A stretch of DNA of 64,000 bases from Marsupella aquatica (lineage: Eukaryota > Plantae > Marchantiophyta), in the NCBI GenBank assembly GCA_973895155.1, contig OZ316892.1, positions 448,917 through 512,916 on the forward strand. Direction: 5' to 3'. How positions within the stretch are numbered: position 1 is the stretch's first letter; each line of letters starts with the position of its first letter. Positions 11,025 to 58,900 of this stretch are shown one piece after another. Under the pieces are notes generated by a model, which was not told the DNA's origin, ran no database searches, and saw only the letters and a list, made by a program, of their open reading frames with translations. Position numbers and translations under genes: made by a program.

Positions 11025-11040
11025 GGAAACGCAAAAATGA

Positions 11041-17620: not shown

Positions 17621-17625
17621 AGGGC

Positions 17626-27058: not shown

Positions 27059-27974
27059 CGGTGCAAGGGCGCCGTTCCTTTTAGGGAAGGCGGACATGGA
27101 GGGAGGAGGCGTGAGTGGGCAGGGCGGGCGCGGATCTCCACGTTTAGGATTAGGATCAGAACCAGGAGCGGCCCTGACACTTAGCTTAGTGGGATTGCGG
27201 TCCCACTGGTAGGAGCAACACTTGTGCTCCTGCCTTGCTGTACATAGGTAGATTCGGGCAAGTAGATTACTGTTAAGTAGATTAGGCTTACGATGCAAAG
27301 AATGGCGGATCCACTACCAGGATAAGTACCTGGGCAGCGGGGAGCTCAGGGCCTCTTCTTTAGCAAGTTTTTAGTTTGCACCAGACGGGCTGGGATCAAG
27401 TAGTACGAGAAGCTCTCGGTTAGTCATACAGTGACCCTTGTGTATATTCATGTTTCCTCATGCCTAAGAGCTGAATAGAGTTGGCCTCACGGCTTAGTTC
27501 GCAGAACTTGTGTATGAGATGTACTGTTTGTATGGCAAGTGCATGGTATGACTCAGTCAGAATGAGTCATTTTGCTATTTGTGTGTCGCATTAACTTGTG
27601 TGAAGAGTGCCCACATCAACAGAAGGAAGGAAAGTAAGCAGGGGAGTGAGAGTTGGATGTGTCGAGCTGAGAGAGGTCTTAGCGGCTTAACCAAGCCTAT
27701 TGGGGATCATTCCGGCGGCGGAATCCAAACATACCTAACAGGAAGACAGGGGAAGATAGGGGAAGGCCTATATTAGGCCGGCTACGTATCTCATGACCCG
27801 ATGAAGGATCTGTCCAGTATATGTGTGTAAAATGTTAATAGTAGTAGTAGAAGGTTAGCAGCGTCCCATGCCGCTAAGCCGCGGAAACGGCCTCGCCAAG
27901 CACGAAACCTGCGGGAATCGGCTTGAGCTGGGGGGTTTCTTGGGTTTAGGGAGCCATGGGACACACCACATTTT

Positions 27975-34206: not shown

Positions 34207-37200
34207 ACAGGAATCACTCGACCGGTTAAGTGGGTAAAGCAGGAAGGCACCCTAGGAACACCTTAGTATAGTGACAAAACAAGGAAAATATAAACAATTA
34301 GGGGCAACCATGGAACCCGGGCAGAGGCCGGAGGTAAGGCTGAGGGTGAAAACCCAATTAGGGTTAGGGCGCGTTAAGCGTCGGCGGCTAGGAAGGATCA
34401 ACGGGAAGAAGGACCGGCAGAGGAGAGGGGTAAGGAGCGCTTGCAGGAGATGGTGGCTCATTTGCGAGCACGAACTAGGCAGACGACTACGGGAGGCCAA
34501 CTACTGTCAGCTGCTTAGGCAAGCACTCGGGGAGAGAGTAGATACCGACGATCGACCTAAGGAGGGTATGAGCAACGTCAATCAAGCGGCACATTTCTGG
34601 GGATGCCTGTTCGAACGGGCAACTGAGTACATCAAGACTTACGAGGACGAGGAGTCAGAAAGGGCAGCTCGAGAACGGCAGGAGCTCGCTCGATTGTGGG
34701 AGCTGCACAAGACGGCTTTCTTAGGAGGCGAACTCATCAAGGACGAGTTCCTGTGGACGCCTACTTCCAATCAACTCGACGATCTTCTGTTTTGCAAAGA
34801 CAGCGTCGTCGGCATCCGAGAGGCCATCAAGAACTGCAACGACATACACTGGGAATTAAAGGGTAGCACGGAAAGGTGGACCCGGGCAACGGTGCTAGGA
34901 GAAACCTCCACGGCAGCAGAGATGAAGAGGAAGGGAGCCGTCAACGATGAAGCCACCCTGGCAAAAAGAACGAGGTCGGCGGCACCAAAGAAGCCAGCCG
35001 AGCAGCAGAGCAGGAGGCAGGGAGAAGCCGAAGAGGAGGAGGTCGATCCCATCAAGGCCATTCCAACCAGGGATGACACCTGGAAGGGCTGGGCGGCAAC
35101 CCTACCGGTGGAGGTGCAACTACATTTTGCACGGGAGGAGGATGCATGCTTTACGGCCATGCAGACCAAGAAGTACCAAGGCTTCATGGCCGGATCCGGC
35201 TTGGAGGCCTTTGTAAGATTACCATGGCTGAAGCCGGAGGTACCGGAGTCAGACCTATTAGAATTCGTGGGGTCATGGGAACCCGAGACCAATTGCACGA
35301 GGATATATGGGAAGGATTTCTATCTTACTCCCAAGGTAATTGCCGAAGTGTTTGGCTTGCCGATGGGCAATAAGACCAAAGTTGATACCAGGAAGACCTT
35401 GCCTGACAAGGAGTTCCGGTCGTTCCCCGGGCCATCAACGAAGAATGGCTTCTTCCGGAGCACCTGCACCAACCCGCACATAGGAGAGATGATCGACTTC
35501 TTGCGGGTGACCATGCATTGTAACTTGCCGAGGGCAGAGATCGGCAAGGCACAGGTCTATCTGGTAGAAAGGCCAGACCCAAGCCGGGACTACAACGGGT
35601 ACCTCCTCAACCAATTGAAGAAGATCTTAAAGGAGGAGCAGCAGGTAATCGGCATGGGGAGCGTGTCGCGGCTTGGCTATCACATGCCGCTGTTGTGCCG
35701 GTATGCCAGAGGTCAGACTTTTGCCCCGGTACTTCCCCTGCAGGTAAGGGCACCCGAGGAAGCTCCAACACCGAGGCCGTTGGCTGAGAAGCCTCCACCA
35801 CCTGTTAGTCCTACGATCGAGCAGGTGTTTAGGCCCAGGAAGGAAGACTTGCCGATGCAGCAACCAGGCATGCAGAGTCTGCTGAAACTACTGGAGAAAG
35901 AAAAGAAATCGGCATCGGCAACAACAACAACAACGGCAACGGCAACAATGCAGGACACTACTACAGAGGTAGGCCTACACCGGCTCACAAGAGAAAACCC
36001 CTTTGCTGGAGACAAGGAGAGAATCAGGCCGGAATCCAAGCCAGGTGTTCGAATGTACGTGGGAACCTCAAGCTCCGAATCTGAGGCAGAATTGCCTGAA
36101 GCTCCTACCGACGAAGAGGAGAGGGAGAAGCCGGACGTCCAAGAAGTAGAGGAGGCAGTGGAGGACTGCAGCCATGATAATTCCGGCTATGGGTCGGACC
36201 ATCACGTTCCAGGAGTAAGGACCTGTGGCCAGTTTGTCCCCACACTTCCAAGGGTAGTGCGAGGGGACCCCAACCAGCAGAGTAGCCCTGAGTCTCCCCC
36301 ACCAGATGTTGCTCCCCCGAGCTTCGACGGCATAAAACAGACGGTGCAGGAATTTCAGGAGCGAATCAAGCAGGAGGAAGAGGCCGCCCTGGCTAAGGAA
36401 AAGGATTTACCAGGAGGAGATTGGCCGGAGGACATCAGGCGGCTAGCCGAAAAAGGAAGCAAACCTCTAGCCACGATTGAAGAGATCCGCAGGACGGCGT
36501 GGGAGCAGAGGCCACGATGGGCGATGCCGATCACTTCTACTTACTCCACCTACGCTAAGAATAGAGCCATGGAGTAGGGTGAGATGTGTGGGGAACTTGC
36601 GCTCGGCATCTTTGGAGAGGAGTTGGAGGTAGGACCCTTTTTCCATAGGGAGCAGTTGGAGAAGCACCAATTAGAAGAAGCGGTGGCTTTAGAGAGAAGC
36701 AAGAAGGACGAGGTCATTCGGCGGCTTAGGAGGATGGGAGCCGAGATTGAAGATCTAAGGGCGGCCAAGAAAGCCCAAGATGAACTGCGGATTAAACGAC
36801 ATGAGCTGAACATCATGCAGGGGCAGTTGGACGCCGCGCAGGCTGATAATCAGAATATCAAGGATAAACTGGCTCAGACGCAGGAAGAGTTGGCCGACAC
36901 GATCAAAGAGAGGGAGAAGTGGAAGCAAGAGCTGAAGAATACAGAGGAGGCCCACATAACAGCCAACAGCCGGGCCATGGCGGAGACCCAAAGAAAGGAA
37001 TGGGCGTTGAAAGGGGAGCTCGAGAAAATCCGCGGAGCCCTTGAGCAGAAGGAGGTCGAGTTAGGGAAATCCTATCAAGGGATTATGGCGCTGCAGCAGG
37101 AGCTTGCGTCCCTGACGGCCAGCTTCAAGGCCGACCTAAGGGAGAAGGACTAGATGCTCGAACAGACTTACGCCAAGATGAACCAGATGGAGTCTGTCAT

Positions 37201-38851
37201 CATTGCAGAGCTCGACAAGGAGCTAAGAGCAACCCAGGAGGAGAGGGCTACCTTGAAGAAGGAATTGGAGGAAGCCCACAGGGAGCAGGAGGAGGCCAAA
37301 AACGAGCTGGAGGGGGCACGTAAGGACCTGGATGAAACCCAAGAGGAGTTGGAGGAAATCACGAGGAAGATGGAGAACCTACAGCGGCGGGCCGACAACC
37401 AAACAGAGCGGCTGAAGAAACAAGCCGCAGTATTTAAATGCTTAGCTGCAGCAGGTCCATCTCCCGTTGGGACAAACCAGTTACCAGGGGTGGTAATTGC
37501 CGAAGGACAAGCCGCGTCAACTGCACCAGTGCCGGAAGTAAGTGGGAAGGGGAAGGGACCAGCTGCTGAGCCACCAACGAAGAAGAAGTGGAAACCTCCA
37601 GGGTCAAGGAGTAATACGACTTCACAGGCCGTGGTGATCAAGGAGGTAGACCCAGCACCGACCCCAGACAGGGTCACGGCTAAGGATCCAACTACCCTAG
37701 GGGAAGGGGAGGCCGAAGCCGAGGGAGTGGCTGAAGCCGAAGCCGTGGGAGTGGCTGAGGCCGAAGCCGTGGGTATTGCCGAGGCCGGTGTCGAGGCTGA
37801 AGCCGAAGGTGGACCCAGTCAGGCCGATGGAGAGTTGACTCGGTCAAGGGCAGGTAATCTGTCAGTAGGCGGGCCAACGGCAGTGGCTGAGGAGGAAGTG
37901 TTGGGGGCGTCCATTGAGGATCCACCACCGGTGTCGTGACGGTGCAAGGGCGCCGTTCCTTTTAGGGAAGGCGGACATGGAGGGAGGAGGCGTGAGTGGG
38001 CAGGGCGGGCGCGGATCTCCACGTTTAGGATTAGGATCAGAACCAGGAGCGGCCCTGACACTTAGCTTAGTGGGATTGCGGTCCCACTGGTAGGAGCAAC
38101 ACTTGTGCTCCTGCCTTGCTGTACATAGGTAGATTCAGGCAAGTAGATTACTGTTAAGTAGATTAGGCTTACGATGCAAAGAATGGCGGATCCACTACCA
38201 GGATAAGTACCTGGGCAGCGGGGAGCTCAGGGCCTCTTCTTTAGCAAGTTTTTAGTTTGCACCAGACGGGCTGGGATCAAGTAGTACGAGAAGCTCTCGG
38301 TTAGTCATACAGTGACCCTTGTGTATATTCATGTTTCCTCATGCCTAAGAGCTGAATAGAGTTGGCCTCACGGCTTAGTTCGCAGAACTTGTGTATGAGA
38401 TGTACTGTTTGTATGGCAAGTGCATGGTATGACTCAGTCAGAATGAGTCATTTTGCTATTTGTGTGTCGCATTAACTTGTGTGAAGAGTGCCCACATCAA
38501 CAGAAGGAAGGAAAGTAAGCAGGGGAGTGAGAGTTGGATGTGTCGAGCTGAGAGAGGTCTTAGCGGCTTAACCAAGCCTATTGGGGATCATTCCGGCGGC
38601 GGAATCCAAACATACCTAACAGGAAGACAGGGGAAGACAGGGGAAGGCCTATATTAGGCCGGCTACGTATCTCATGACCCGATGAAGGATCTGTCCAGTA
38701 TATGTGTGTAAAATGTTAATAGTAGTAGTAGAAGGTTAGCAGCGTCCCATGCCGCTAAGCCACGGAAACGGCCTCGCCAAGCACGAAACCTGCGGGAATC
38801 GGCTTGAGCTGGGGGGTTTCTTGGGTTTAGGGAGCCATGGGACGCACCACA
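34195..38851 (+). repeat. Family B LTR2 (4657 bp), shared between units 1 and 2
   Basis: Preceded by PPT, followed by PBS; TG...CA. Confidence 0.95.
34310..37939 (+). pseudogene. LTR-encoded protein, LTR2 copy (TAG at 36575 and 37151)
   Basis: ATG in strong context GCAACCATGG; three same-frame ORFs. Confidence 0.85.
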
Positions 38852-44900: not shown

Positions 44901-45087
44901 TCGCTGGTTAGGACCCTTTAGAGTAACCATGATGTTCCCCAATGGCTCCGTGCAATTGGCCAACATTACGGGAGAGGTATATCCAGTTCGCATCCATTAT
45001 GACCGCCTCAAGAAATACTATATGGACGAAGATGAAGTTGTTCGCGAGGACGCTTCACAATTAAGTGGGGAGCTATGTGATGCCTAG
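41821..45087 (+). CDS. pol: Pol (RT, RNase H, integrase), unit 2
   Basis: Intact ORF, catalytic motifs retained. Confidence 0.97.
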   Translation: MGSSSRDSGFSAGVVAEPTGSTTPSIIGKELNTKGSAYKPITRAEQIEALLEAERAQRPNSQEQEVDEMDRHDLEPRQEGEPTTNSKPNRPVRGQSMDTKEGTDSASPAEIPVYGGMRLERLEAELDPNLKKQINMIQARQYRKLDLGEGRELNLGRNLAPELEKEINDLLIEFQDVFAWSHQDLKGVDPTLGEHRIDLMLGAKSFRQPIRRMNPKYSLLVKTEIDKLVEAGFITPVLHSDWVSPIVIVPKKAGPDGKPKIRVCQDYRKLNEATLKDHFPLPFTNMVLDMVASHELYSFMDGYSGYNQIRIRQEDQIKTAFITEWGIYVFNHMPFGLCNAPTMFQRLMVNIFHDYLRKFMEIFIDDFAVFGKASKHAKYLRKTFMRCREVGLKLHPDKCFFAVTEGVLLGHKVSRKGIEIDKGKLAVWLDIMQPKNIKDVRSFLGCIGYYRRFIKDFAKLALPLTNMLKAGADFEPTPERVTAVVELKQMLVEAPVMIAPDWNKDFHVFVDVSGFCIGSVLSQLDEKGRDHPIYFASRQLADAERNYSTTEREALGVIYSCKKFRHYLLGYKVIFHTDHESLKYLVNKPDLTGRVARWILLLQEFDYELRIKPGKLHANADFFSRITGKPATDCIDDRFPDEELFVVEIAGTWYPEILQFLSTSRLQPGLSREQAAVFVRKVRQYQCIKGILHKHGINGTIQRCLEKREVKRVLRAMHGEEAGGHFAPVTTSKKILNAGYWWPTLHKDVYQFIKQCDPCQRAGGPRASTRHPLHPILPLAPFEKWGIDYIGPLKPLTHPRRNKYIILATDYATKWVEARPTTKDDAITTARFMYEQIFTRYGAPLELVSDRGTHFLNDIISRLNEQYLVKHRPTTPYHPKANGLTERANGIIGKILNKTVAQNKLDWDDKLFAAVFAYNLAYKSTTGHTPFFLTFGQEALVPMQLEIPTFQVTIEERASAEESLKEREYRLEALEEARMISAERVEYRQNIMKQQYDKRLKVVSIHTGDLVLLYDSRYSRFPGKLYTRWLGPFRVTMMFPNGSVQLANITGEVYPVRIHYDRLKKYYMDEDEVVREDASQLSGELCDA

Positions 45088-45190
45088 ACAGGAATCACTC
45101 GACCGGTTAAGTGGGTAAAGCAGGAAGGCACCCTAGGAACACCTTAGTATAGTGACAAAACAAGGAAAATATAAACAATTAGGGGCAACC

Positions 45191-48037
45191 ATGGAACCCG
45201 GGCAGAGGCCGGAGGTAAGGCTGAGGGTGAAAACCCGATTAGGGTTAGGGCGCGTTAAGCGTCGGCGGCTAGGAAGGATCAACGGGAAGAAGGACCGGCA
45301 GAGGAGAGGGGTAAGGAGCGCTTGCAGGAGATGGTGGCTCATTTGCGAGCACGAACTAGGCAGACGACTACGGGAGGCCAACTACTATCAGCTGCTTAGG
45401 CAAGCACTCGGGGAGAGAGTAGATACCAACGATCGACCTAAGGAGGGTATGAGCAACGTCAATCAAGCGGCACATTTCTGGGGATGCCTGTTCGAACGGG
45501 CAACTGAGTACATCAAGACTTACGAGGACGAGGAGTCAGAAAGGGCAGCTCGAGAACGGCAGGAGCTCGCTCGATTGTGGGAGCTGCACAAGACGGCTTT
45601 CTTAGGAGGCGAACTCATCAAGGACGAGTTCCTGTGGATGCCTACTTCCAATCAACTCGACGATCTTCTGTTTTGCAAAGACAGCGTCGTCGGCATCCGA
45701 GAGGCCATCAAGAACTGCAACGACATACACTGGGAATTAAAGGGTAGCACGGAAAGGTGGACCCGGGCAACGGTGCTAGGAGAAACCTCCATGGCAGCAG
45801 AGATGAAGAGGAAGGGAGCCGTCAACGATGAAGCCACCCCGGCAAAAAGAACGAGGTCGGCGGCACCAAAGAAGCCAGCCGAGCAGCAGAGCAGGAGGCA
45901 GGGAGAAGCCGAAGAGGAGGAGGTCGATCCCATCAAGGCCATTCCAACCAGGGATGACACCTGGAAGGGCTGGGCGGCAACCCTACCGGTGGAGGTGCAA
46001 CTACATTTTGCACGGGAGGAGGATGCATGCTTTACGGCCATGCAGACCAAGAAGTACCAAGGCTTCATGGCCGGATCCGGCTTGGAGGCCTTTGTAAGAT
46101 TACCATGGCTGAAGCCGGAGGTACCGGAGTCAGACCTATTAGAATTCGTGGGGTCATGGGAACCCGAGACCAATTGCACGAGGATATATGGGAAGGATTT
46201 CTATCTTACTCCCAAGGTAATTGCCGAAGTGTTTGGCTTGCCGATGGGCAATAAGACCAAAGTTGATACCAGGAAGACCTTGCCTGACAAGGAGTTCCGG
46301 TCGTTCCCCGGGCCATCAACGAAGAATGGCTTCTTCCGGAACACCTGCACCAACCCGCACATAGGAGAGATGATCGACTTCTTGCGGGTGACCATGCATT
46401 GTAACTTGCCGAGGGCAGAGATCGGCAAGGCACAGGTCTATCTGGTAGAAAGGCCAGACCCAAGCCGGGACTACAACGGGTACCTCCTCAACCAATTGAA
46501 GAAGATCTTAAAGGAGGAGCAGCAGGTAATCGGCATGGGGAGCGTGTCGCGGCTTGGCTATCACATGCCGCTGTTGTGCCGGTATGCCAGAGGTCAGACT
46601 TTTGCCCCGGTACTTCCCCTGCAGGTAAGGGCACCCGAGGAAGCTCCAACACCGAGGCCGTTGGCTGAGAAGCCTCCACCACCTGTTAGTCCTACGATCG
46701 AGCAGGTGTTTAGGCCCAGGAAGGAAGACTTGCCGATGCAGCAACCAGGCATGCAGAGTCTGCTGAAACTACTGGAGAAAGAAAAGAAATCGGCATCGGC
46801 AACAACAACAACAACAACGGCAACGGCAACAATGCAGGACACTACTACAGAGGTAGGCCTACACCGGCTCACAAGAGAAAACCCCTTTGCTGGAGACAAG
46901 GAGAGAATCAGGCCGGAATCCAAGCCAGGTGTTCGAATGTACGTGGGAACCTCAAGCTCCGAATCTGAGGCAGAATTGCCTGAAGCTCCTACCGACGAAG
47001 AGGAGAGGGAGAAGCCGGACGTCCAAGAAGTAGAGGAGGCAGTGGAGGATTGCAGCCATGATAATTCCGGCTATGGGTCGGACCATCACATTCCAGGAGT
47101 AAGGACCTGTGGCCGGTTTGTCCCCACACTTCCAAGGGTAGTGCGAGGGGACCCCAACCAGCAGAGTAGCCCTGAGTCTCCCCCACCAGATGTTGCTCCC
47201 CCGAGCTTCGACGGCATAAAACAGACGGTGCAGGAATTTCAGGAGCGAATCAAGCAGGAGGAAGAGGCCGCCCTGGCTAAGGAAAAGGATTTACCAGGAG
47301 GAGATTGGCCGGAGGACATCAGGCGGCTAGCCGAAAAAGGAAGCAAACCTCTAGCCACGATTGAAGAGATCCGCAGGACGGCGTGGGAGCAGAGGCCACG
47401 ATGGGCGATGCCGATCACTTCTACTTACTCCACCTACGCTAAGAATAGAGCCATGGAGTATGGTGAGATGTGTGGGGAACTTGCGCTCGACATCTTTGGA
47501 GAGGAGTTGGAGGTAGGACCCTTTTTCCATAGGGAGCAGTTGGAGAAGCACCAATTAGAAGAAGCGGTGGCTTTAGAGAGAAGCAAGAAGGACGAGGTCA
47601 TTCGGCGGCTTAGGAGGATGGGAGCCGAGATTGAAGATCTAAGGGCGGCCAAGAAAGCCCAAGATGAACTGCGGATTAAACGACATGAGCTGAACATCAT
47701 GCAGGGGCAGTTGGACGCCGCGCAGGCTGATAATCAGAATATCAAGGATAAACTGGCTCAGACGCAGGAAGAGTTGGCCGACACGATCAAAGAGAGGGAG
47801 AAGTGGAAGCAAGAGCTGAAGAATACAGAGGAGGCCCACATAACAGCCAACAGCCGGGCCATGGCGGAGACCCAAAGAAAGGAATGGGCGTTGAAAGGGG
47901 AGCTCGAGAAAATCCGCGGAGCCCTTGAGCAGAAGGAGGTCGAGTTAGGGAAATCCTATCAAGGGATTATGGCGCTGCAGCAGGAGCTTGCGTCCCTGAC
48001 GGCCAGCTTCAAGGCCGACCTAAGGGAGAAGGACTAG
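45191..48037 (+). CDS. LTR-encoded protein, LTR3 copy (most intact: 948 aa to the shared TAG; ~1210 codons if read through to 48823)
   Basis: Uninterrupted ORF within the LTR: Arg-rich N-terminus, W-x-PET..I..VFGLP domain, Pro/acidic linker, coiled coil. Confidence 0.8.
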   Translation: MEPGQRPEVRLRVKTRLGLGRVKRRRLGRINGKKDRQRRGVRSACRRWWLICEHELGRRLREANYYQLLRQALGERVDTNDRPKEGMSNVNQAAHFWGCLFERATEYIKTYEDEESERAARERQELARLWELHKTAFLGGELIKDEFLWMPTSNQLDDLLFCKDSVVGIREAIKNCNDIHWELKGSTERWTRATVLGETSMAAEMKRKGAVNDEATPAKRTRSAAPKKPAEQQSRRQGEAEEEEVDPIKAIPTRDDTWKGWAATLPVEVQLHFAREEDACFTAMQTKKYQGFMAGSGLEAFVRLPWLKPEVPESDLLEFVGSWEPETNCTRIYGKDFYLTPKVIAEVFGLPMGNKTKVDTRKTLPDKEFRSFPGPSTKNGFFRNTCTNPHIGEMIDFLRVTMHCNLPRAEIGKAQVYLVERPDPSRDYNGYLLNQLKKILKEEQQVIGMGSVSRLGYHMPLLCRYARGQTFAPVLPLQVRAPEEAPTPRPLAEKPPPPVSPTIEQVFRPRKEDLPMQQPGMQSLLKLLEKEKKSASATTTTTTATATMQDTTTEVGLHRLTRENPFAGDKERIRPESKPGVRMYVGTSSSESEAELPEAPTDEEEREKPDVQEVEEAVEDCSHDNSGYGSDHHIPGVRTCGRFVPTLPRVVRGDPNQQSSPESPPPDVAPPSFDGIKQTVQEFQERIKQEEEAALAKEKDLPGGDWPEDIRRLAEKGSKPLATIEEIRRTAWEQRPRWAMPITSTYSTYAKNRAMEYGEMCGELALDIFGEELEVGPFFHREQLEKHQLEEAVALERSKKDEVIRRLRRMGAEIEDLRAAKKAQDELRIKRHELNIMQGQLDAAQADNQNIKDKLAQTQEELADTIKEREKWKQELKNTEEAHITANSRAMAETQRKEWALKGELEKIRGALEQKEVELGKSYQGIMALQQELASLTASFKADLREKD

Positions 48038-48823
48038 ATGCTCGAACAGACTTACGCCAAGATGAACCAGATGGAGTCTGTCATCATTGCAGAGCTCGAC
48101 AAGGAGCTAAGAGCAACCCAGGAGGAGAGGGCTACCTTGAAGAAGGAATTGGAGGAAGCCCACAGGGAGCAGGAGGAGGCCAAAAACGAGCTGGAGGGGG
48201 CACGTAAGGACCTGGATGAAACCCAAGAGGAGTTGGAGGAAATCACGAGGAAGATGGAGAACCTACAGCGGCGGGCCGACAACCAAACAGAGCGGCTGAA
48301 GAAACAAGCCGCAGTATTTAAATGCTTAGCTGCAGCAGGTCCATCTCCCGTTGGGACAAACCAGTTACCAGGGGTGGTAATTGCCGAAGGACAAGCCGCG
48401 TCAACTGCACCAGTGCCGGAAGTAAGTGGGAAGGGGAAGGGACCAGCTGCTGAGCCACCAACGAAGAAGAAGTGGAAACCTCCAGGGTCAAGGAGTAATA
48501 CGACTTCACAGGCCGTGGTGATCAAGGAGGTAGACCCAGCACCGACCCCAGACAGGGTCACGGCTAAGGATCCAACTACCCTAGGGGAAGGGGAGGCCGA
48601 AGCCGAGGGAGTGGCTGAAGCCGAAGCCGTGGGAGTGGCTGAGGCCGAAGCCGTGGGTATTGCCGAGGCCGGTGTCGAGGCTGAAGCCGAAGGTGGACCC
48701 AGTCAGGCCGATGGAGAGTTGACTCGGTCAAGGGCAGGTAATCTGTCAGTAGGCGGGCCAACGGCAGTGGCTGAGGAGGAAGTGTTGGGGGCGTCCATTG
48801 AGGATCCACCACCGGTGTCGTGA
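48038..48823 (+). CDS. C-terminal 261-aa segment of the LTR-encoded protein (coiled coil + low-complexity tail), in frame directly after TAG
   Basis: TAG-ATG junction; B' reads through the equivalent position (EKDDQLDQ). Confidence 0.55.
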   Translation: MLEQTYAKMNQMESVIIAELDKELRATQEERATLKKELEEAHREQEEAKNELEGARKDLDETQEELEEITRKMENLQRRADNQTERLKKQAAVFKCLAAAGPSPVGTNQLPGVVIAEGQAASTAPVPEVSGKGKGPAAEPPTKKKWKPPGSRSNTTSQAVVIKEVDPAPTPDRVTAKDPTTLGEGEAEAEGVAEAEAVGVAEAEAVGIAEAGVEAEAEGGPSQADGELTRSRAGNLSVGGPTAVAEEEVLGASIEDPPPVS

Positions 48824-49804
48824 CGGTGCAAGGGCGCCGTTCCTTTTAGGGAAGGCGGACGTGGAGGGAGGAGGCGTGAGTGGGCAGGGCGGGCGCGGAT
48901 CTCCACGTTTAGGATTAGGATCAGAACCAGGAGCGGCCCTGACACTTAGCTTAGTGGGATTGCGGTCCCACTGGTAGGAGCAACACTTGTGCTCCTGCCT
49001 TGCTGTACATAGGTAGATTCGGGCAAGTAGATTACTGTTAAGTAGATTAGGCTTACGATGCAAAGAATGGCGGATCCACTACCAGGATAAGTACCTGGGC
49101 AGCGGGGAGCTCAGGGCCTCTTCTTTAGCAAGTTTTTAGTTTGCACCAGCCGGGCTGGGATCAAGTAGTACGAGAAGCTCTCGGTTAGTCATACAGTGAC
49201 CCTTGTGTATATTCATGTTTCCTCATGCCTAAGAGCTGAATAGAGTTGGCCTCACGGCTTAGTTCGCAGAACTTGTGTATGAGATGTACTGTTTGTATGG
49301 CAAGTGCATGGTATGACTCAGTCAGAATGAGTCATTTTGCTATTTGTGTGTCGCATTAACTTGTGTGAAGAGTGCCCACATCAACAGAAGGAAGGAAAGT
49401 AAGCAGGGGAGTGAGAGTTGGATGTGTCGAGCTGAGAGAGGTCTTAGCGGCTTAACCAAGCCTATTGGGGATCATTCCGGCGGCGGAATCCAAACATACT
49501 TAACAGGAAGACAGGGGAAGACAGGGGAAGGCCTATATTAGGCCGGCTACGTATCTCATGACCCGATGAAGGATCTGTCCAGTATATGTGTGTAAAATGT
49601 TAATAGTAGTAGTAGAAGGTTAGCAGCGTCCCATGCCGCTAAGCCGCGGAAACGGCCTCGCCAAGCACGAAACCTGCGGGAATCGGCTTGAGCTGGGGGG
49701 TTTATTGGGTTTAGGGAGCCATGGGACGCACCACATTTTTGGCGCTAGATGGAGGGGGCATTTCTTAAGCCGTGAGATATGAAGTTAGAACGGAAGCGTA
49801 GGTA

Positions 49805-52798
49805 ATGACTGACCTTACGCCGAGGGAAGAAAGAGTGATTCAACGGGAGAGAGCTCGACTGCAGCAGCTCGCCGGGTGGCATGATACACAGCGACTGAGA
49901 GGGGCAGAAAGAGCTGGTAGCTCCGAAACTGGAAGTGGCGTCGAAGAAGACATACCAGAAGAAGAGTCGGTAAGGAGAAGTGAGTCTCCAACCGACATGG
50001 GGGAACCAGAGGCACGGCCAGACGAGAGGCCAGGGACCAGATTGAGCCAGCGGTCGCGCATACATTACAAAGCATTTCATGGGAGAGGAGATGAGGATCC
50101 GGACGAATGGTTGGATGATTTCGAGGGAACCGCTGCAGCAAATGGAGAATCGGCCATCAAGATGCAGATTCTTCCCGGCCTGTTCAAGGGTGAGGCTAGG
50201 TCTTGGTACAGAGCATTAGATGTGGAAGATCAAGCCATCTGGGATATCTTCAAAACACTCTTTGTTAAGGAGTTTCGACCCATTGGAACTTCAGAACTAG
50301 CAGTGCTGAAGTTGGGACAACTTCGGTTCAAGGAGAACAAATCCTTCAGGAAGTTCTTGCAACGCTTTCAGAAACTGGTAAGACGTACAAAGACCAATGC
50401 ATCTGAAGGTATGCAACTTCAATGGTTGGTGAATGCTTTGCCACAGAAGATGAGTTTTGCAATTAGGAAGGAGAACCCGGAGACTTTAGCCGAAGCAATT
50501 AAGGATATTCAATTATACATTAATGCAGATATCACAAGCCGGAAGAAACAGCTTAAGTCTGAGAGTTCCTCATCAGAGGAGGGATCACCCCATAAGAAAA
50601 AAGATAAGAAGAAGAAACATTCCAAGAAGTCTAGAAGTGATAAGTCAAGCTCGGATAGTGGGAGTAGCAAGAGTGAGTCATCTTCTAGTTCTGAAGAAGA
50701 AAAAACTAGGAAAAGGAAGGGCAGAAGGAGAGGGAAGACGAAAGTCAAGATGGAGGCTAAGCCACCAGATAACATCGTAGCCCTTACCGAGCAACTTAAG
50801 GCTATCATTGCAGAGGTAAAACCAAAGAAGAAGGTAGTACAGGAGGATAGCTCTGTATGGTGTGCCTTATGTTATAAAACCAGACACCATAAAGATGCGT
50901 GTCCTAAGCTTAATACTAATCATGTTCGGCATGTGGCCGAGATCAGACCATGTCAGGGAGAAGTAGAGTACTTTTTGGGAGATGCCGCTAATAGTGTTTT
51001 CGGCATCAGTGAGACTGGAGCACGAGACCTATCCAACAGACCTGCATCTCTGTGGTCAGGATTAAGGAACAATCCAGGAGAGATGTATCCTCGGATTATT
51101 CAGAACCCGTCAGTACCTCCTAGGCCGAATGTGCAAAGATTTGCGGCGTGCTATAATTGTGGTCAACCTGGCCATTTTGCTAGAGAATGCCCGAATGCAC
51201 GCAAACAGGGTGATGGACAACCAGCTCAGCTATGTATGGGATGCCGACAGGAAGGTCATATGCTAGGGCAATGTCCTACTTGGTTGGCAGGCCTGGCCGC
51301 AAATCATAAGCTTTTGCCGATCAAGATCTTACCGCCAGGTACTACCCCCGGAGGAGTTCAAATCAACCACATCGAACTAGGATGGCAAGAGGATGCCGAG
51401 GCAGAGTTCGTACCATCTGATGATGAGGCCGAAGCCCTATCAACCTTCTCAGAGGAGGATTTAGATCATGATTGCTACCGGGTCTCTACTCGATCTACCA
51501 GAAGGAAGGAAAGGTGGGATGGGCTGGCCAAAAATAAAGGGAAGGTTACGGAGGAAAGGATCGACTCTTCGTCAACATCAACAGAAGGAGAAGGGAGGGC
51601 TCCGGCAATACAGGTAAGCCATGAGCCCACCAGTGAAACCAATCCTTCACAAGATAGCGACTTCAATCGAGATCATCCTAAGTTGTTCTACCCCTCTGTT
51701 ACGGCTAGTGTTAAGGAACAACTAAGAGAATTAGAAACCCTGGAGAATACCGAAGCCATTGCCAAGGATGTAAAACGAGCAAAAGCATTGTTTGCTTCGG
51801 AAGACCCAACAGCTGTGGAGACTAGCGTGGCAAAACTGGCCGAATCCAAGACGGAAACACCACCAGAAGAGAAGCCGATTGTTCCCTATGACCTGGCTAA
51901 AGATGTACTAGAATCTAGAGTCTCGGCAACAGTAGGTCAACTATTGAAAAATAGCCCGTACTTCCGGAAGCAATTAAGGAAGGCTATTCTCGGCAAGCCG
52001 AGATTACCCAAGGTAGCAACCAGATCCGACGTACTAATGATAGAAGAAGATCAAGGAGCCCCAGCATTACCATTAATGATTCAAGGAGAATTATTACTAC
52101 GGGTACCCATCGATGGAGGATCAGGGGTATGTATTATGATTGATTCAACAGCAAAAGGGTGGGGTCTAACACCGGAGATGACTGGAAGAGTGTTGAACAT
52201 GGCCAATGGATATCAGGTCATTCCGACGGGAGTGTTAACCGGCATCAAGACAGAGATAGGAGGTATCTTCTTTAGCATTAACTATGTAGTAATGAAGCCG
52301 GTAAATCCTACGTCATTCCGGCTATTGATTGGTAGGCCATGGCTGTACCTAGCCGAGGTAATAGAAGATTGGGGTAAAAAGCAGTTCACTTTCGGGACCC
52401 CCTCTATCACGGTATCCTGGGACACTAAGGATGACCGTAGGAAAAGCATAAGGGAAGTAGATGGGTACGATAGTGGACTGGAGTCAGCCGATGAAGTACG
52501 TTGGTTAGAATGCCTCACTAACCTAACCGAAGAAGGTGTCTTTGGACCAGAGGTACCCCCCAGCGGATTATGGCAAGAACCAATGGAAGGTGACTTGGAA
52601 GAAGAAGACGAAGAGGTCGAGGACTGCTTTACAATAGAATCCACCTTTTTAGCTGCAATTCCGGAGGAAGTTAAGGATGTAGACCAATTGGATGAAACGG
52701 CTAAGTGGGGAGCAGTAGCAGGGACAGTGGATTTTCTGCAGGCGTTGTGGCAGAGCCGACGGGGTCCACAACGCCATCGATCATCGGCAAGGAATTAA
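49805..52798 (+). CDS. gag: Gag-protease polyprotein, unit 3 (997 aa)
   Basis: Intact copy; G>R change in first zinc knuckle (CYKTRHH). Confidence 0.95.
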   Translation: MTDLTPREERVIQRERARLQQLAGWHDTQRLRGAERAGSSETGSGVEEDIPEEESVRRSESPTDMGEPEARPDERPGTRLSQRSRIHYKAFHGRGDEDPDEWLDDFEGTAAANGESAIKMQILPGLFKGEARSWYRALDVEDQAIWDIFKTLFVKEFRPIGTSELAVLKLGQLRFKENKSFRKFLQRFQKLVRRTKTNASEGMQLQWLVNALPQKMSFAIRKENPETLAEAIKDIQLYINADITSRKKQLKSESSSSEEGSPHKKKDKKKKHSKKSRSDKSSSDSGSSKSESSSSSEEEKTRKRKGRRRGKTKVKMEAKPPDNIVALTEQLKAIIAEVKPKKKVVQEDSSVWCALCYKTRHHKDACPKLNTNHVRHVAEIRPCQGEVEYFLGDAANSVFGISETGARDLSNRPASLWSGLRNNPGEMYPRIIQNPSVPPRPNVQRFAACYNCGQPGHFARECPNARKQGDGQPAQLCMGCRQEGHMLGQCPTWLAGLAANHKLLPIKILPPGTTPGGVQINHIELGWQEDAEAEFVPSDDEAEALSTFSEEDLDHDCYRVSTRSTRRKERWDGLAKNKGKVTEERIDSSSTSTEGEGRAPAIQVSHEPTSETNPSQDSDFNRDHPKLFYPSVTASVKEQLRELETLENTEAIAKDVKRAKALFASEDPTAVETSVAKLAESKTETPPEEKPIVPYDLAKDVLESRVSATVGQLLKNSPYFRKQLRKAILGKPRLPKVATRSDVLMIEEDQGAPALPLMIQGELLLRVPIDGGSGVCIMIDSTAKGWGLTPEMTGRVLNMANGYQVIPTGVLTGIKTEIGGIFFSINYVVMKPVNPTSFRLLIGRPWLYLAEVIEDWGKKQFTFGTPSITVSWDTKDDRRKSIREVDGYDSGLESADEVRWLECLTNLTEEGVFGPEVPPSGLWQEPMEGDLEEEDEEVEDCFTIESTFLAAIPEEVKDVDQLDETAKWGAVAGTVDFLQALWQSRRGPQRHRSSARN

Positions 52799-55700
52799 AT
52801 ACCAAGGGATCGGCATACAAGCCGATTACGAGGGCAGAACAAATTGAGGCCCTATTAGAAGCCGAGAGAGCACAGCGGCCTAACTCTCAGGAGCAAGAGG
52901 TGGATGAGATGGACAGACACGATCTAGAGCCAAGGCAGGAAGGGGAGCCGACCACTAATTCAAAACCGAATAGACCGGTAAGGGGACAATCTATGGACAC
53001 CAAGGAAGGGACCGACTCGGCTAGTCCAGCCGAGATCCCAGTTTATGGAGGTATGAGATTAGAGAGACTGGAAGCCGAACTGGACCCGAATTTGAAGAAG
53101 CAGATTAATATGATCCAAGCACGGCAATATCGGAAGCTCGACTTAGGAGAGGGAAGAGAACTGAACTTAGGGAGAAACCTAGCACCTGAGCTCGAGAAAG
53201 AGATCAATGACTTATTGATTGAATTTCAGGATGTGTTTGCATGGAGTCACCAAGATCTAAAGGGAGTAGATCCAACACTAGGGGAACATCGAATTGATCT
53301 CATGTTAGGAGCCAAATCATTTCGACAACCAATTCGAAGGATGAACCCGAAGTATTCCCTGCTGGTCAAAACAGAAATCGACAAACTAGTGGAAGCTGGA
53401 TTCATCACTCCAGTCCTGCATTCAGACTGGGTGTCTCCAATTGTGATAGTTCCCAAGAAAGCTGGACCCGATGGTAAACCCAAGATCCGGGTTTGTCAGG
53501 ATTACAGGAAGCTGAATGAAGCAACATTAAAAGACCATTTTCCTTTACCGTTTACTGATATGGTACTAGACATGGTAGCCAGTCATGAACTATATTCATT
53601 CATGGATGGATACTCTGGTTATAACCAAATCAGGATTCGGCAGGAAGACCAAATCAAGACGGCCTTCATCACGGAATGGGGGATCTATGTCTTCAATCAT
53701 ATGCCGTTTGGACTCTGCAACGCACCAACTATGTTCCAACGATTAATGGTGAACATTTTTCATGATTACTTGAGAAAGTTCATGGAAATCTTCATTGATG
53801 ACTTTGCAGTATTCGGGAAGGCATCGAAACATGCTAAATACCTCAGGAAAACCTTCATGAGATGTAGAGAGGTGGGTCTCAAGTTACACCCAGATAAATG
53901 TTTTTTTGCAGTAACCGAGGGGGTGCTACTAGGTCACAAGGTATCAAGGAAGGGCATTGAGATTGACAAAGGTAAGCTAGCAGTATGGCTAGATATCATG
54001 CAACCTAAGAACATAAAGGATGTAAGATCCTTCTTGGGATGCATTGGTTACTATCGCCGGTTCATCAAGGATTTTGCCAAGCTAGCTTTACCATTAACCA
54101 ATATGCTCAAGGCAGGAGCAGACTTCGAACCCACACCCGAACGAGTCACAGCGGTGGTAGAATTGAAGCAGATGTTAGTAGAGGCCCCAGTCATGATAGC
54201 ACCGGACTGGAACAAAGATTTTCATGTTTTTGTAGATGTCTCGGGCTTCTGTATTGGCTCAGTACTAAGTCAGTTGGATGAGAAAGGAAGGGACCATCCC
54301 ATATACTTCGCAAGCCGTCAGCTTGCCGATGCCGAACGGAACTACTCTACCACGGAAAGAGAAGCATTAGGAGTCATTTATTCTTGTAAAAAGTTTAGGC
54401 ATTATTTACTAGGGTACAAGGTAATCTTTCATACTGATCATGAAAGTTTGAAGTACCTAGTCAATAAGCCGGACCTTACAGGCAGAGTAGCAAGATGGAT
54501 TTTGCTATTACAGGAGTTTGACTATGAGCTGAGGATCAAGCCGGGAAAGTTACATGCCAATGCCGACTTCTTTTCAAGGATCACAGGTAAACCTGCCACG
54601 GATTGCATCGATGATCGATTCCCCGACGAGGAGCTATTCGTTGTGGAAATAGCTGGTACATGGTACCCTGAGATTTTACAATTTCTCAGCACTTCCAGAT
54701 TACAGCCAGGATTAAGCCGAGAGCAAGCCGCAGTCTTTGTGCGGAAGGTCAGACAGTATCAGTGCATTAAAGGCATACTGCACAAGCATGGAATCAACGG
54801 CACGATTCAAAGGTGTTTGGAAAAGAGAGAGGTAAAACGAGTCCTACGGGCCATGCATGGAGAGGAGGCCGGAGGACATTTTGCCCCAGTAACCACATCT
54901 AAGAAGATATTAAATGCCGGTTACTGGTGGCCCACCTTGCACAAAGATGTCTATCAGTTTATCAAACAATGCGATCCTTGTCAACGAGCGGGAGGACCAA
55001 GGGCGTCCACCAGGCATCCACTGCACCCTATTCTACCTCTGGCACCATTCGAGAAGTGGGGTATTGATTACATTGGACCTCTGAAACCACTGACCCACCC
55101 TCGACGGAACAAGTACATAATCCTGGCTACGGATTATGCAACTAAATGGGTAGAGGCCAGACCAACAACGAAGGATGATGCAATTACTACGGCTAGATTC
55201 ATGTATGAGCAGATCTTCACCAGGTATGGAGCACCCCTAGAATTAGTTAGTGATAGAGGAACCCATTTTTTGAATGATATAATTAGTCGTTTAAATGAGC
55301 AGTATTTAGTTAAACATAGGCCTACTACTCCCTACCATCCAAAGGCAAACGGGTTGACAGAACGAGCAAACGGGATCATAGGAAAGATATTGAACAAGAC
55401 AGTAGCTCAGAACAAACTCGATTGGGATGATAAATTGTTTGCTGCTGTTTTTGCTTACAATCTGGCCTATAAATCCACTACCGGTCATACACCCTTCTTC
55501 TTAACCTTTGGACAAGAAGCCCTGGTACCCATGCAACTTGAGATACCGACATTTCAAGTTACAATTGAGGAAAGAGCCTCAGCGGAGGAGAGCCTAAAGG
55601 AGCGAGAATATAGGTTAGAAGCTTTAGAGGAAGCGAGAATGATTTCAGCCGAGAGAGTAGAATATAGACAGAATATCATGAAGCAGCAGTATGATAAAAG

Positions 55701-55971
55701 GTTAAAAGTAGTTAGTATTCATACCGGTGATCTTGTGCTACTTTATGACAGTAGGTATAGTAGGTTTCCAGGAAAGCTTTACACTCGCTGGTTAGGACCC
55801 TTTAGAGTAACCATGATGTTCCCCAATGGCTCCGTGCAATTGGCCAACATTACGGGAGAGGTATATCCAGTTCGCATCCATTATGACCGCCTCAAGAAAT
55901 ACTATATGGACGAAGATGAAGTTGTTCGCGAGGACGCTTCACAATTAAGTGGGGAGCTATGTGATGCCTAG
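52705..55971 (+). CDS. pol: Pol (RT, RNase H, integrase), unit 3
   Basis: Intact ORF, catalytic motifs retained. Confidence 0.97.
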   Translation: MGSSSRDSGFSAGVVAEPTGSTTPSIIGKELNTKGSAYKPITRAEQIEALLEAERAQRPNSQEQEVDEMDRHDLEPRQEGEPTTNSKPNRPVRGQSMDTKEGTDSASPAEIPVYGGMRLERLEAELDPNLKKQINMIQARQYRKLDLGEGRELNLGRNLAPELEKEINDLLIEFQDVFAWSHQDLKGVDPTLGEHRIDLMLGAKSFRQPIRRMNPKYSLLVKTEIDKLVEAGFITPVLHSDWVSPIVIVPKKAGPDGKPKIRVCQDYRKLNEATLKDHFPLPFTDMVLDMVASHELYSFMDGYSGYNQIRIRQEDQIKTAFITEWGIYVFNHMPFGLCNAPTMFQRLMVNIFHDYLRKFMEIFIDDFAVFGKASKHAKYLRKTFMRCREVGLKLHPDKCFFAVTEGVLLGHKVSRKGIEIDKGKLAVWLDIMQPKNIKDVRSFLGCIGYYRRFIKDFAKLALPLTNMLKAGADFEPTPERVTAVVELKQMLVEAPVMIAPDWNKDFHVFVDVSGFCIGSVLSQLDEKGRDHPIYFASRQLADAERNYSTTEREALGVIYSCKKFRHYLLGYKVIFHTDHESLKYLVNKPDLTGRVARWILLLQEFDYELRIKPGKLHANADFFSRITGKPATDCIDDRFPDEELFVVEIAGTWYPEILQFLSTSRLQPGLSREQAAVFVRKVRQYQCIKGILHKHGINGTIQRCLEKREVKRVLRAMHGEEAGGHFAPVTTSKKILNAGYWWPTLHKDVYQFIKQCDPCQRAGGPRASTRHPLHPILPLAPFEKWGIDYIGPLKPLTHPRRNKYIILATDYATKWVEARPTTKDDAITTARFMYEQIFTRYGAPLELVSDRGTHFLNDIISRLNEQYLVKHRPTTPYHPKANGLTERANGIIGKILNKTVAQNKLDWDDKLFAAVFAYNLAYKSTTGHTPFFLTFGQEALVPMQLEIPTFQVTIEERASAEESLKEREYRLEALEEARMISAERVEYRQNIMKQQYDKRLKVVSIHTGDLVLLYDSRYSRFPGKLYTRWLGPFRVTMMFPNGSVQLANITGEVYPVRIHYDRLKKYYMDEDEVVREDASQLSGELCDA

Positions 55972-58900
55972 ACAGGAATCACTCGACCGGTTAAGTGGGT
56001 AAAGCAGGAAGGCACCCTAGGAACACCTTAGTATAGTGACAAAACAAGGAAAATATAAACAATTAGGGGCAACCATGGAACCCGGGCAGAGGCCGGAGGT
56101 AAGGCTGAGGGTGAAAACCCGATTAGGGTTAGGGCGCGTTAAGCGTCGGCGGCTAGGAAGGATCAACGGGAAGAAGGACCGGCAGAGGAGAGGGGTAAGG
56201 AGCGCTTGCAGGAGATGGTGGCTCATTTGCGAGCACGAACTAGGCAGACGACTACGGGAGGCCAACTACTATCAGCTGCTTAGGCAAGCACTCGGGGAGA
56301 GAGTAGATACCGACGATCGACCTAAGGAGGGTATGAGCAACGTCAATCAAGCGGCACATTTCTGGGGATGCCTGTTCGAACAGGCAACTGAGTACATCAA
56401 GACTTACGAGGACGAGGAGTCAGAAAGGGCAGCTCGAGAACGGCAGGAGCTCACTCGATTGTGGGAGCTGCACAAGACGGCTTTCTTAGGAGGCGAACTC
56501 ATCAAGGACGAGTTCCTGTGGACGCCTACTTCCAATCAACTCGACGATCTTCTGTTTTGCAAAGACAGCGTCGTCGGCATCCGAGAGGCCATCAAGAACT
56601 GCAACGACATACACTGGGAATTAAAGGGTAGCACGGAAAGGTGGACCCGGGCAACGGTGCTAGGAGAAACCTCCACGGCAGCAGAGATGAAGAGGAAGGG
56701 AGCCGTCAACGATGAAGCCACCCCGGCAAAAAGAACGAGGTCGGCGGCACCAAAGAAGCCAGCCGAGCAGCAGAGCAGGAGGCAGGGAGAAGCCGAAGAG
56801 GAGGAGGTCGATCCCATCAAGGCCATTCCAACCAGGGATGACACCTGGAAGGGCTGGGCGGCAACCCTACCGGTGGAGGTGCAACTACATTTTGCACGGG
56901 AGGAGGATGCATGCTTTACGACCATGCAGACCAAGAAGTACCAAGGCTTCATGGCCGGATCCGGCTTGGAGGCCTTTGTAAGATTACCATGGCTGAAGCC
57001 GGAGGTACCGGAGTCAGACCTATTAGAATTCGTGGGGTCATGGGAACCCGAGACCAATTGCACGAGGATATATGGGAAGGATTTCTATCTTACTCCCAAG
57101 GTAATTGCCGAAGTGTTTGGCTTGCCGATGGGCAATAAGACCAAAGTTGATACCAGGAAGACCTTGCCTGACAAGGAGTTCCGGTCGTTCCCCGGGCCAT
57201 CAACGAAGAATGGCTTCTTCCGGAGCACCTGCACCAACCCGCACATAGGAGAGATGATCGACTTCTTGCGGGTGACCATGCATTGTAACTTGCCGAGGGC
57301 AGAGATCGGCAAGGCACAGGTCTATCTGGCAGAAAGGCCAGACCCAAGCCGGGACTACAACGGGTACCTCCTCAACCAATTGAAGAAGATCTTAAAGGAG
57401 GAGCAGCAGGTAATCGGCATGGGGAGCGTGTCGCGGCTTGGCTATCACATGCCGCTGTTGTGCCGGTATGCCAGAGGTCAGACTTTTGCCCCGGTACTTC
57501 CCCTGCAGGTAAGGGCACCCTAGGAAGCTCCAACACTGAGGCCGTTGGCTGAGAAGCCTCCACCACCTGTTAGTCCTACGATCGAGCAGGTGTTTAGGCC
57601 CAGGAAGGAAGACTTGCCGATGCAGCAACCAGGCATGTAGAGTCTGCTGAAACTACTGGAGAAAGAAAAGAAATCGGCATCGGCAACAACAACAACAACG
57701 GCAACGGCAACAATGCAGGACACTACTACAGAGGTAGGCCTACACCGGCTCACAAGAGAAAACCCCTTTGCTGGAGACAAGGAGAGAATCAGGCCGGAAT
57801 CCAAGCCAGGTGTTCGAATGTACGTGGGAACCTCAAGCTCCGAATCTGAGGCAGAATTGCCTGAAGCTCCTACCGACGAAGAGGAGAGGGAGAAGCCGGA
57901 CGTCCAAGAAGTAGAGGAGGCAGTGGAGGATTGCAGCCATGATAATTCCGGCTATGGGTCGGACCATCACATTCCAGGAGTAAGGACCTGTGGCCGGTTT
58001 GTCCCCACACTTCCAAGGGTAGTGCGAGGGGACCCCAACCAGCAGAGTAGCCCTGAGTCTCCCCCACCAGATGTTGCTCCCCCGAGCTTCGACGGCATAA
58101 AACAGACGGTGCAGGAATTTCAGGAGCGAATCAAGCAGGAGGAAGAGGCCGCCCTGGCTAAGGAAAAGGATTTACCAGGAGGAGATTGGCCGGAGGACAT
58201 CAGGCGGCTAGCCGAAAAAGGAAGCAAACCTCTAGCCACGATTGAAGAGATCCGCAGGACGGCGTGGGAGCAGAGGCCACGATGGGCGATGCCGATCACT
58301 TCTACTTACTCCACCTACGCTAAGAATAGAGCCATGGAGTATGGTGAGATGTGTGGGGAACTTGCGCTCGACATCTTTGGAGAGGAGTTGGAGGTAGGAC
58401 CCTTTTTCCATAGGGAGCAGTTGGAGAAGCACCAATTAGAAGAAGCGGTGGCTTTAGAGAGAAGCAAGAAGGACGAGGTCATTCGGCGGCTTAGGAGGAT
58501 GGGAGCCGAGATTGAAGATCTAAGGGCGGCCAAGAAAGCCCAAGATGAACTGCGGATTAAACGACATGAGCTGAACATCATGCAGGGGCAGTTGGACGCC
58601 GCGCAGGCTGATAATCAGAATATCAAGGATAAACTGGCTCAGACGCAGGAAGAGTTGGCCGACACGATCAAAGAGAGGGAGAAGTGGAAGCAAGAGCTGA
58701 AGAATACAGAGGAGGCCCACATAACAGCCAACAGCCGGGCCATGGCGGAGACCCAAAGAAAGGAATGGGCGTTGAAAGGGGAGCTCGAGAAAATCCGCGG
58801 AGCCCTTGAGCAGAAGGAGGTCGAGTTAGGGAAATCCTATCAAGGGATTATGGCGCTGCAGCAGGAGCTTGCGTCCCTGACGGCCAGCTTCAAGGCCGAC

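Follow-up and report, generated by a model that had tools for sequence, protein, structure and literature searches.

Two families of Ty3/gypsy retrotransposons in the liverwort Marsupella aquatica carry, wholly inside their long terminal repeats (LTRs), a long protein-coding gene that has been under purifying selection. They lie in a 64,000-nucleotide stretch of GenBank assembly GCA_973895155.1 (contig OZ316892.1, positions 448,917 to 512,916 of the forward strand), hereafter the window, in which positions are counted from the first letter. The core domain of the encoded protein is predicted to share the fold of VANC proteins and the plant mobile domain (PMD), and the full reading, in which these LTRs would house a DNA-binding anti-silencing factor likely driven by its own promoter within the U3 region, was judged to be about evenly balanced.

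Giant LTRs that enclose a reading frame

The frame was analysed in the third of four LTRs in a tandem array of family-B elements (Table 1). Its 5' junction at 45076 follows a polypurine tract (PPT; …GTGGGGAGCTA/TG), and its 3' junction at 49735 reads CA/TTTT-TGGCGCTAG, which resembles a primer binding site (PBS). The sequence-only reading of this DNA had placed a 4.66-kb LTR between these PPT/TG and CA/PBS junctions, and the extent of 4,660 bp was confirmed because both ends also occur next to unrelated flanks: the first array LTR has the same TG start at 23318 without a PPT, giving an independent 5' end, and a diverged LTR, B', has the same CA end at 20777 without a PBS, giving an independent 3' end. 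Family B was assigned to Ty3/gypsy from the order gag–protease (PR)–reverse transcriptase (RT)–RNase H (RH)–integrase (INT) between its LTRs and from the presence of a PBS and a PPT. Self-comparison of the window revealed an LTR-internal-LTR layout with four LTRs and internal regions of 6,224 bp, and the array extends past the window edge. The internal region comprises only a gag-protease frame and an overlapping RT-RH-INT frame, with no Pfam match to an archaeal-type RNase H (aRH) or a chromodomain, and the pol stop lies 12 nt into the next LTR, so that no 3' internal region remains. The array LTRs are ~99.5% alike; any two of them differ by 13–25 substitutions, distributed as a mosaic, and this speaks against collapse or duplication during assembly.

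The second family is represented by element A (4082–17620), which sits within B' and has a 5-bp target-site duplication (TSD), AGGGC, whose first copy occupies 4077–4081. A homologous open reading frame (ORF) was found in both LTRs of this TSD-flanked element, confirming that the true LTR is long and that the gene is not internal. The elements measure 15.5 kb in family B and 13.5 kb in family A. Their Pol proteins are 69% identical and their core proteins 27% identical (E 5e-18), with no significant similarity between the LTR DNAs; B' is 82–85% identical to the family-B LTRs. Since the gene is located inside the true LTR, it is duplicated with each insertion, as had been proposed, and its survival in solo LTRs is plausible from this layout. 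B' has no downstream PBS, but its 5' end is cut, so that it may equally be the 3' LTR of an element. Public sequencing gave weak support for the long LTR: in four runs, each from a different organism, contig depth over the whole LTR, including the ORF, exceeded that of the flanking internal bins (in run X1, a median of ~590,000 over 22 LTR bins vs ~180,000 over 6 internal bins, depth not being copy number).

Extent of the frame and selection on it

In the family-B LTR, the frame runs from an ATG at 45191 (LTR position +116) to 48823, giving 1,210 codons that occupy 78% of the LTR and a stop 912 bp before its end, in agreement with the initial estimates of ~115 bp, ~78%, and ~910 bp. The accompanying description as a complete gene of ~1200 codons held for the length of the frame, and failed for its completeness and, probably, for its start. 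The protein starts 5–12 residues before the same FW motif in family A and in 8 of the 11 aligned database homologs (their starts being gene-caller predictions), and in family B this motif comes after M87 at 45449. Moreover, the only TATAAA of the family-B LTR (45170) lies 21 nt before ATG 45191, too near for that codon to be within a TATA-driven transcript. A start at ATG 45449, yielding 1,124 codons, is therefore more likely than one at 45191; the probability that the 86 upstream codons stayed open by chance was P=0.023. Downstream of the TATA box but ahead of ATG 45449 there is an out-of-frame upstream ORF of 22 codons (45331–45399), which could reduce translation.

All copies of the ORF in the window are decayed and could be served only in trans. 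A premature in-frame TAG at codon 949 (48035–48037) is present in all four array copies, with further stops beyond it in copy 1 (one), copy 2 (one), and copy 4 (two), and the B' frame has three stops plus frameshifts. The codon-949 stop looks private to this array, because 94–100% of the depth at 48035 in four runs (X6 being one contig) came without it. In the ORF tail, a 24-bp in-frame microrepeat (EAEAVGVA) was observed at 48593–48671, which the repeat finder did not list for B'; variable repeats have been reported in VANC coding regions too.

Comparison of B with B' over 1,068 codons gave a synonymous divergence (dS) of 0.49 and a non-synonymous divergence (dN) of 0.13, i.e., a dN/dS of 0.27 (bootstrap 0.22–0.32), with regional values of 0.13 in the core, 0.21 in the N-terminal domain, 0.23 in the coiled-coil region, and 0.58 in the tail. 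Neutral simulations with transition bias (150 each) had mean dN/dS values of 0.67–0.78 and minima of 0.51 for the whole ORF and 0.34 for the core, all above the observed values. The LTR-borne ORF has thus been under purifying selection as a protein, which upholds the earlier claim made from 13 codons of the core (six synonymous changes and one K/R change). Four of the other five frames had dN/dS values of 1.0–1.4. The fifth, the antisense mirror frame, was rejected as a gene, since it carries 31 stops and its low value (0.32) is the expected third-position echo. The array copies differ among themselves by 0–2 synonymous and 9–12 non-synonymous changes and show no constraint, so selection acted on the replicating lineage. 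The comparison of the 5' and 3' LTR ORFs of element A (dN/dS 0.58) fell inside the neutral range.

Protein domains, homologs, and predicted fold

The protein comprises an N-terminal helical domain, the core domain, a disordered linker, and a coiled-coil-like region, together with basic clusters resembling nuclear localization signals (NLSs); no membrane span was found (best 19-residue hydropathy 0.98). Its conserved basic residues include R361, K378, R399, and R408. Word-indexed protein searches with the ORF returned no homologs. A full hidden Markov model (HMM) search of 1.84 billion representatives, with a core profile built from A, B, and B', recovered 70 homologs (E<=0.001). Twenty of these were looked up, and the nine with an organism name were all from liverworts (seven Calypogeia fissa, two Riccia sorocarpa). 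Matches to Transposase_32 were detected in three of the 70 (best E 4.6e-7) and to DUF1985 in one (E 8.1e-5), all below curated cut-offs, and no protein in the window matched ATHILA or Transposase_32 at the Pfam cut-off. By language-model features, the Atlas neighbours of the core were an unnamed cluster (0.91), Transposase_32 (0.89), and ATHILA (0.88). Profile comparison with the DUF1985-bearing homolog gave E 8e-5 and a probability of 61%; because the same search had supplied this homolog, the link is not independent evidence. Three angiosperm proteins annotated with PF20167 went undetected by the core profile, whose sequence search of the PDB gave a single, unrelated match (E 0.4).

AlphaFold modelled the core, from 52 sequences, with a pLDDT score (predicted local distance difference test) of 91.5. 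A fold search against 48,161 chains matched it to VANC21 bound to DNA, with Z 7.7 and an rmsd (root-mean-square deviation) of 4.3 over 206 of 226 residues. Only one other chain reached Z>=2, a designed protein at Z 2.2, leaving VANC21 alone at Z>=5; the sister VANC21 entry gave Z 7.6 and, in Foldseek, a template modelling (TM) score of 0.53 with E 4.3. Several results count against this fold assignment: the core of the window proteins has no Pfam match, Z 7.7 falls within the range of 7–8 common for unrelated models, sequence identity is 8%, and the Foldseek E value is 4.3. The match was nevertheless taken seriously despite Z<8, because it covers the whole domain, the next row is far lower, and the sequence hints agree. 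There is thus moderate support for a VANC/PMD fold in the core, and the best reading places the protein in the PMD/Transposase_32/VANC fold group, members of which are encoded in the internal region of Athila- and Ogre-type elements. Within this group, PMD-C is described as similar to the DUF1985 domain of VANC and PMD-A as retrotransposon-encoded (bioRxiv 10.1101/2024.09.27.615353), and MAIN is reported to align with VANC, with VANC and the Athila domain modelled as coiled-coil oligomers (PMC13547354).

Searches of a viral fold library with the core found nothing at E<=0.001, and none of 286 candidates from a metagenome scan with the core was confirmed. The N-terminal domain had no usable Atlas match, and its model was a small helical bundle with generic matches only (best Z 6.6). 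In addition, two Riccia sorocarpa core homologs (P0175 and P0184) are annotated at the N terminus with a DDE_Tnp_4 fragment that scores below cut-off. This hints either that Harbinger-type DNA transposons of liverworts may carry the core domain as well or that these are fused gene models.

Position of the gene within the LTR

TATA boxes precede the ORF in both families, and the segment behind the ORF measures 912 bp in B and 898 bp in A. Between B and B', this segment diverges by 10.7%, compared with 28% at four-fold sites, with mosaic ancestry as an alternative cause, and in B its end folds better than shuffled sequences (z -3.1, 30 mononucleotide shuffles). Judging from these sequence features, positions 48824–49735 likely hold the main promoter, R, and U5, and the ORF is probably placed in U3. 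The TATA promoter near the LTR 5' end would then yield ORF mRNA from any LTR, solo LTRs included, and this mRNA would end at a poly(A) site within the final 900 bp, the segment in which genomic RNA would start. As to its origin, an ancestral sense accessory ORF of the Athila/Ogre type may have separated pol from the former 3' LTR; adoption of a PPT upstream of this ORF would have made it part of U3. This origin fits because pol runs into the LTR and leaves no 3' internal region, and an upstream PPT shift would be a one-step account of the layout because related domains lie 3' of pol in Athila. Just past the ORF stop there is a purine tract with TG behind it (48860–48885), which is kept in B' and, speculatively, may be what is left of a former PPT and LTR start.

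Less probable, though to be taken seriously, is a position in R/U5, in which the 5' TATA box would be the sole promoter and the ORF the first cistron of the genomic RNA, an arrangement like that of Ogre's 5' extra ORF except that the PBS would have shifted to a position after the ORF; it could be combined with either function discussed below. Two features speak for it and against U3. In element A, the TATA box at 4441, a CT-rich leader, and the first ATG at 4549 form a textbook promoter-gene start and resemble a main LTR promoter, and no second TATA box was clear in the last 900 bp of A or B or seen there as conserved between B and B'. However, a gene in R/U5 would need a minus-strand strong-stop DNA of ~3.6–4.5 kb, read-through of the 5' poly(A) region, and translation of gag downstream, while the 900 bp behind the ORF are strongly constrained and Transposase_32-type ORFs of Athila are described as sense and 3' of pol (PMC11728184). 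The U3 placement is hence retained below as the preferred one.

Proposed function and its alternatives

Considering the predicted fold, the protein may be a nuclear, DNA-binding, and oligomerizing factor that keeps its own family active, a proposal with roughly equal chances of being right and wrong. It would bind a family-specific motif in the element and oligomerize through its coiled coil, and the bound protein would lift DNA methylation or H3K27me3. VANC21 has been reported to bind a 9-base motif and to remove methylation across its own family (PMC5735166). PMD-C proteins are described as countering Polycomb marks, with the same role raised for those encoded by transposable elements (TEs) (bioRxiv 10.1101/2024.09.27.615353), and bryophyte TEs as repressed by Polycomb repressive complex 2 (PRC2) (bioRxiv 10.1101/2022.10.24.513474). 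More tentatively, and somewhat short of an even chance, each LTR may amount to a complete anti-silencing gene, present twice per insertion, with a solo LTR acting as a cassette for a trans-acting, VANC-like de-silencer of the whole family.

Against this anti-silencing role stand the lack of an intact copy of the ORF in the window, the fact that a common fold does not establish function, and the first description of the cellular PMD proteins MAIN and MAIL1 as promoters of silencing (PMC5418596). Moreover, a tandemly amplified short motif is given as a hallmark of VANC targets (PMC5735166), and across the non-coding portions of the A, B, and B' LTRs no over-represented 6- to 9-mers or tandem motif arrays were clearly above shuffles; one of 12 target-motif tests reached P=0.02, for a purine-rich 9-mer with three occurrences in B' only.

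The same gene and fold may instead serve another task at DNA or chromatin, namely transactivation of the LTR, tethering of integration to a chromatin domain, or limitation of copy number. Foamy-virus Tas, for instance, transactivates the LTR promoter. This alternative was given a minority share, since the characterized relatives with the same fold in the literature covered (VANC, MAIN/MAIL) are all described as acting on silencing marks; in its favour, the fold match points to nothing beyond nucleic-acid binding, VANC-like target repeats were not found in the non-coding LTR parts, and the accessory ORFs with related domains in Athila and Ogre had no tested function in the literature reviewed. 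It is very improbable that the ORF encodes an env-like or movement protein with a role at membranes: sense ORFs 3' of pol have classically been termed env-like (PMC7264820), but this one has no hydrophobic span, carries NLS-like clusters, and matches the fold of a DNA-bound protein. Finally, the idea that the long repeat is a segmental duplication or mis-assembly around a short true LTR, or that the frame is open by chance, draws on the tandem array of near-identical copies and is refuted by the LTR ends set by unrelated flanks, the substitutions between array LTRs, the TSD of element A with the gene in both LTRs, a dN/dS far under neutral expectation, and the 70 protein homologs.

Lineage placement and comparison with known systems

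The closest named Pol proteins were from Calypogeia (66–67% identity). In an RT tree of 107 sequences, midpoint-rooted and built with no REXdb references, from which matches of <330 residues and all but 12 metagenome loci were excluded, A and B formed a clade with two Calypogeia proteins and an unnamed one (support 1.0), separate from that of the angiosperm sequences (1.0). A metagenome scan with Pol found 80 loci, mostly 32–49% identical; none of the 80 had the core, a result uninformative on this lineage, and the 12 placed in the tree fell in another clade. Phygy elements are described as 7.7–10 kb long, with a 4-bp NCGN TSD and no extra ORF (PMC6317226), in contrast to the sizes and the extra ORF of both A and B and to the 5-bp TSD of A, that of B falling beyond the window. 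The aRH of the Tat/Ogre/Retand group had no Pfam match, and ~100 residues lie between RH (to 605) and INT (from 707). The 5-bp TSD of A and the absence of aRH agree with the Athila description (PMC6317226), whereas the accessory ORF is inside the LTR rather than between pol and the 3' LTR. The elements thus fall outside Phygy and Tat and fit Athila in part.

Coding sequence that lies in the LTR or overlaps it, and that reverse transcription duplicates to both ends, is known from sag of mouse mammary tumour virus (MMTV), nef of human and simian immunodeficiency viruses (HIV/SIV), and bel2 of foamy viruses. The present ORF is wholly inside the LTR, as is the MMTV sag type, with a U3 position that is the probable one here, but the proteins are unrelated, and sag has ~320 codons compared with 880–1,120 codons here. 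Among plant elements, Cassandra terminal-repeat retrotransposons in miniature (TRIMs) have 5S rRNA sequence within their LTRs and likewise place a gene-like unit there, but that unit is a short module of non-coding RNA, and the element is non-autonomous.

Athila (ATHILA PF03078, Transposase_32 PF20167) and Ogre (PMD PF10536) are non-chromovirus Ty3/gypsy elements that likewise carry a sense accessory ORF (PMC6317226, PMC7264820, PMC11728184). They share with the present elements large size, large LTRs, and, by language-model features and weak HMM matches, the same broad domain group. Their ORF is described as internal and single per element, whereas here it lies in the LTR, twice per element, with an internal region of gag-pol only, and the RT sequences of A and B belong to the liverwort clade apart from the angiosperm sequences. 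Extra ORFs of plant elements are placed by reviews in the internal region (PMC7264820). The REXdb survey lists LTRs up to ~5 kb and reports that extra ORFs may encode PMD, Transposase_28, and Athila domains, and the passages covered make no mention of ORFs in LTRs (PMC6317226). An exact-phrase literature search found no paper on ORFs in retrotransposon LTRs, Repbase, REXdb, and GyDB lying outside its reach.

VANC21 is encoded by VANDAL21, a MuDR-type DNA transposon of Arabidopsis (PDB 9LNK/9LNJ; PMC5735166). It is similarly a transposon-encoded accessory protein with a coiled-coil region and variable low-complexity parts, and its core fold is predicted to be common to both proteins despite 8% identity. 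In contrast, the present protein is the product of a Ty3/gypsy LTR gene for which no tandem target motifs were found, and its named homologs are from liverworts, whereas VANC has been called dicot-specific (PMC13547354). It may act as VANC does but is not classed as a VANC protein.

Other features of the window

Table 1. Features of the window discussed in the text; all lie on the forward strand.
Feature	Position	Strand	Remarks
Diverged LTR B'	2961..20777	+	pieces 2961–4081 and 17621–20777 with element A between; 5' end absent
Element A 5' LTR	4082..8101	+	4,020 bp; TATA box at 4441; decayed homologous ORF 4549–7203 (884 codons)
Element A 3' LTR	14180..17620	+	570-bp deletion; same ORF; followed by second TSD copy
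Family-B LTR, array copy 1	23318..27970	+	5' end of array, unrelated flank
Family-B LTR, array copy 2	34195..38851	+	
Family-B LTR, array copy 3	45076..49735	+	4,660 bp, TG…CA
TATAAA, candidate ORF promoter	45170..45175	+	transcription start site position inferred
Upstream in-frame extension	45191..45448	+	86 codons; without counterpart in aligned homologs
LTR-borne ORF from likely start M87	45449..48823	+	1,124 codons, 72% of LTR
N-terminal helical domain, FW…L.G motif	45449..45790	+	conserved; generic fold
Core domain, VANC21/DUF1985/PMD-like fold predicted	45953..46630	+	lowest regional dN/dS (see text)
Coiled-coil region (residues 801–1045)	47591..48325	+	inferred from sequence and weak Pfam coil matches
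Constrained non-coding LTR end	48824..49735	+	912 bp; T/TGTA-rich near 49200–49300
PBS-like TGGCGCTAG…	49740..49757	+	4-T spacer between LTR end and PBS
Gag-protease frame, family B	49802..52798	+	Retrotrans_gag, zinc knuckle; protease from sequence motif
RT-RNase H-integrase frame, family B	52705..55971	+	overlaps gag-protease in -1
Family-B LTR, array copy 4	55960..60616	+	

The gag-protease and RT-RH-INT frames overlap in -1 (52705–52798) in the three full internal regions, so that the break comes after protease and not after gag; the Pfam protease match was obtained in element A only. The array LTRs group mainly as 1/2 and 3/4 with mosaic sites (23318–60616), a pattern suggesting that unequal recombination or conversion enlarged the array. 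Tandem LTR-retrotransposon arrays with common internal LTRs are reported to be frequent in plants, with the same LTR-internal-LTR-internal-LTR structure (PMC11899658); they account for the array only, not for the LTR-borne gene. In element A, the 3' LTR has lost 570 bp (7512–8081 compared with 17600), including a T/TGTA-rich stretch, and kept the terminal 21 bp. The PBS-like site of element A sits 13 nt past the LTR end (8102–8114), compared with 4 nt in B and the usual 0–5, and the PBS core TGGCGCTAGATGGAGGGGGC is common to A and B. Upstream, positions 1–2960 contain a ~578-bp tandem repeat (~3 copies), an 83-bp tandem repeat (2149–2570), and a terminus, TTTTCTTCTAGTG, that truncates the 5' end of B' and presumably belongs to a CACTA-type DNA transposon, whose end it resembles. 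Athila elements are characterized by a PBS for tRNA-Asp/Asn/Ala; no tRNA genes were found in the window, and Rfam families had no match across 1–50500.

Implications

This window adds the size of an LTR-borne gene, evidence from two families with a TSD, and a VANC-like predicted fold. The function of accessory ORFs in plant Ty3/gypsy elements is an open question in reviews, and the predicted VANC fold turns it into the testable idea of sequence-specific anti-silencing. With 66–72% of the LTR coding, the nature of a solo LTR changes, and pipelines that seek extra ORFs only internally or limit LTR length should be confused by such repeats. The lineage also offers an opportunity to study how a PPT shift may move a gene into the LTR, and a VANC/PMD-fold protein in liverwort retroelements bears on whether the domain originated in hosts or in transposons. 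If the anti-silencing reading is true, these elements would represent an equivalent of VANC among retrotransposons, in plants far removed from the dicots. The host normally removes such elements through LTR-LTR recombination, which would then leave a counter-defence gene behind. Such a family would also offer a new supply of naturally occurring epigenome modifiers with sequence specificity.

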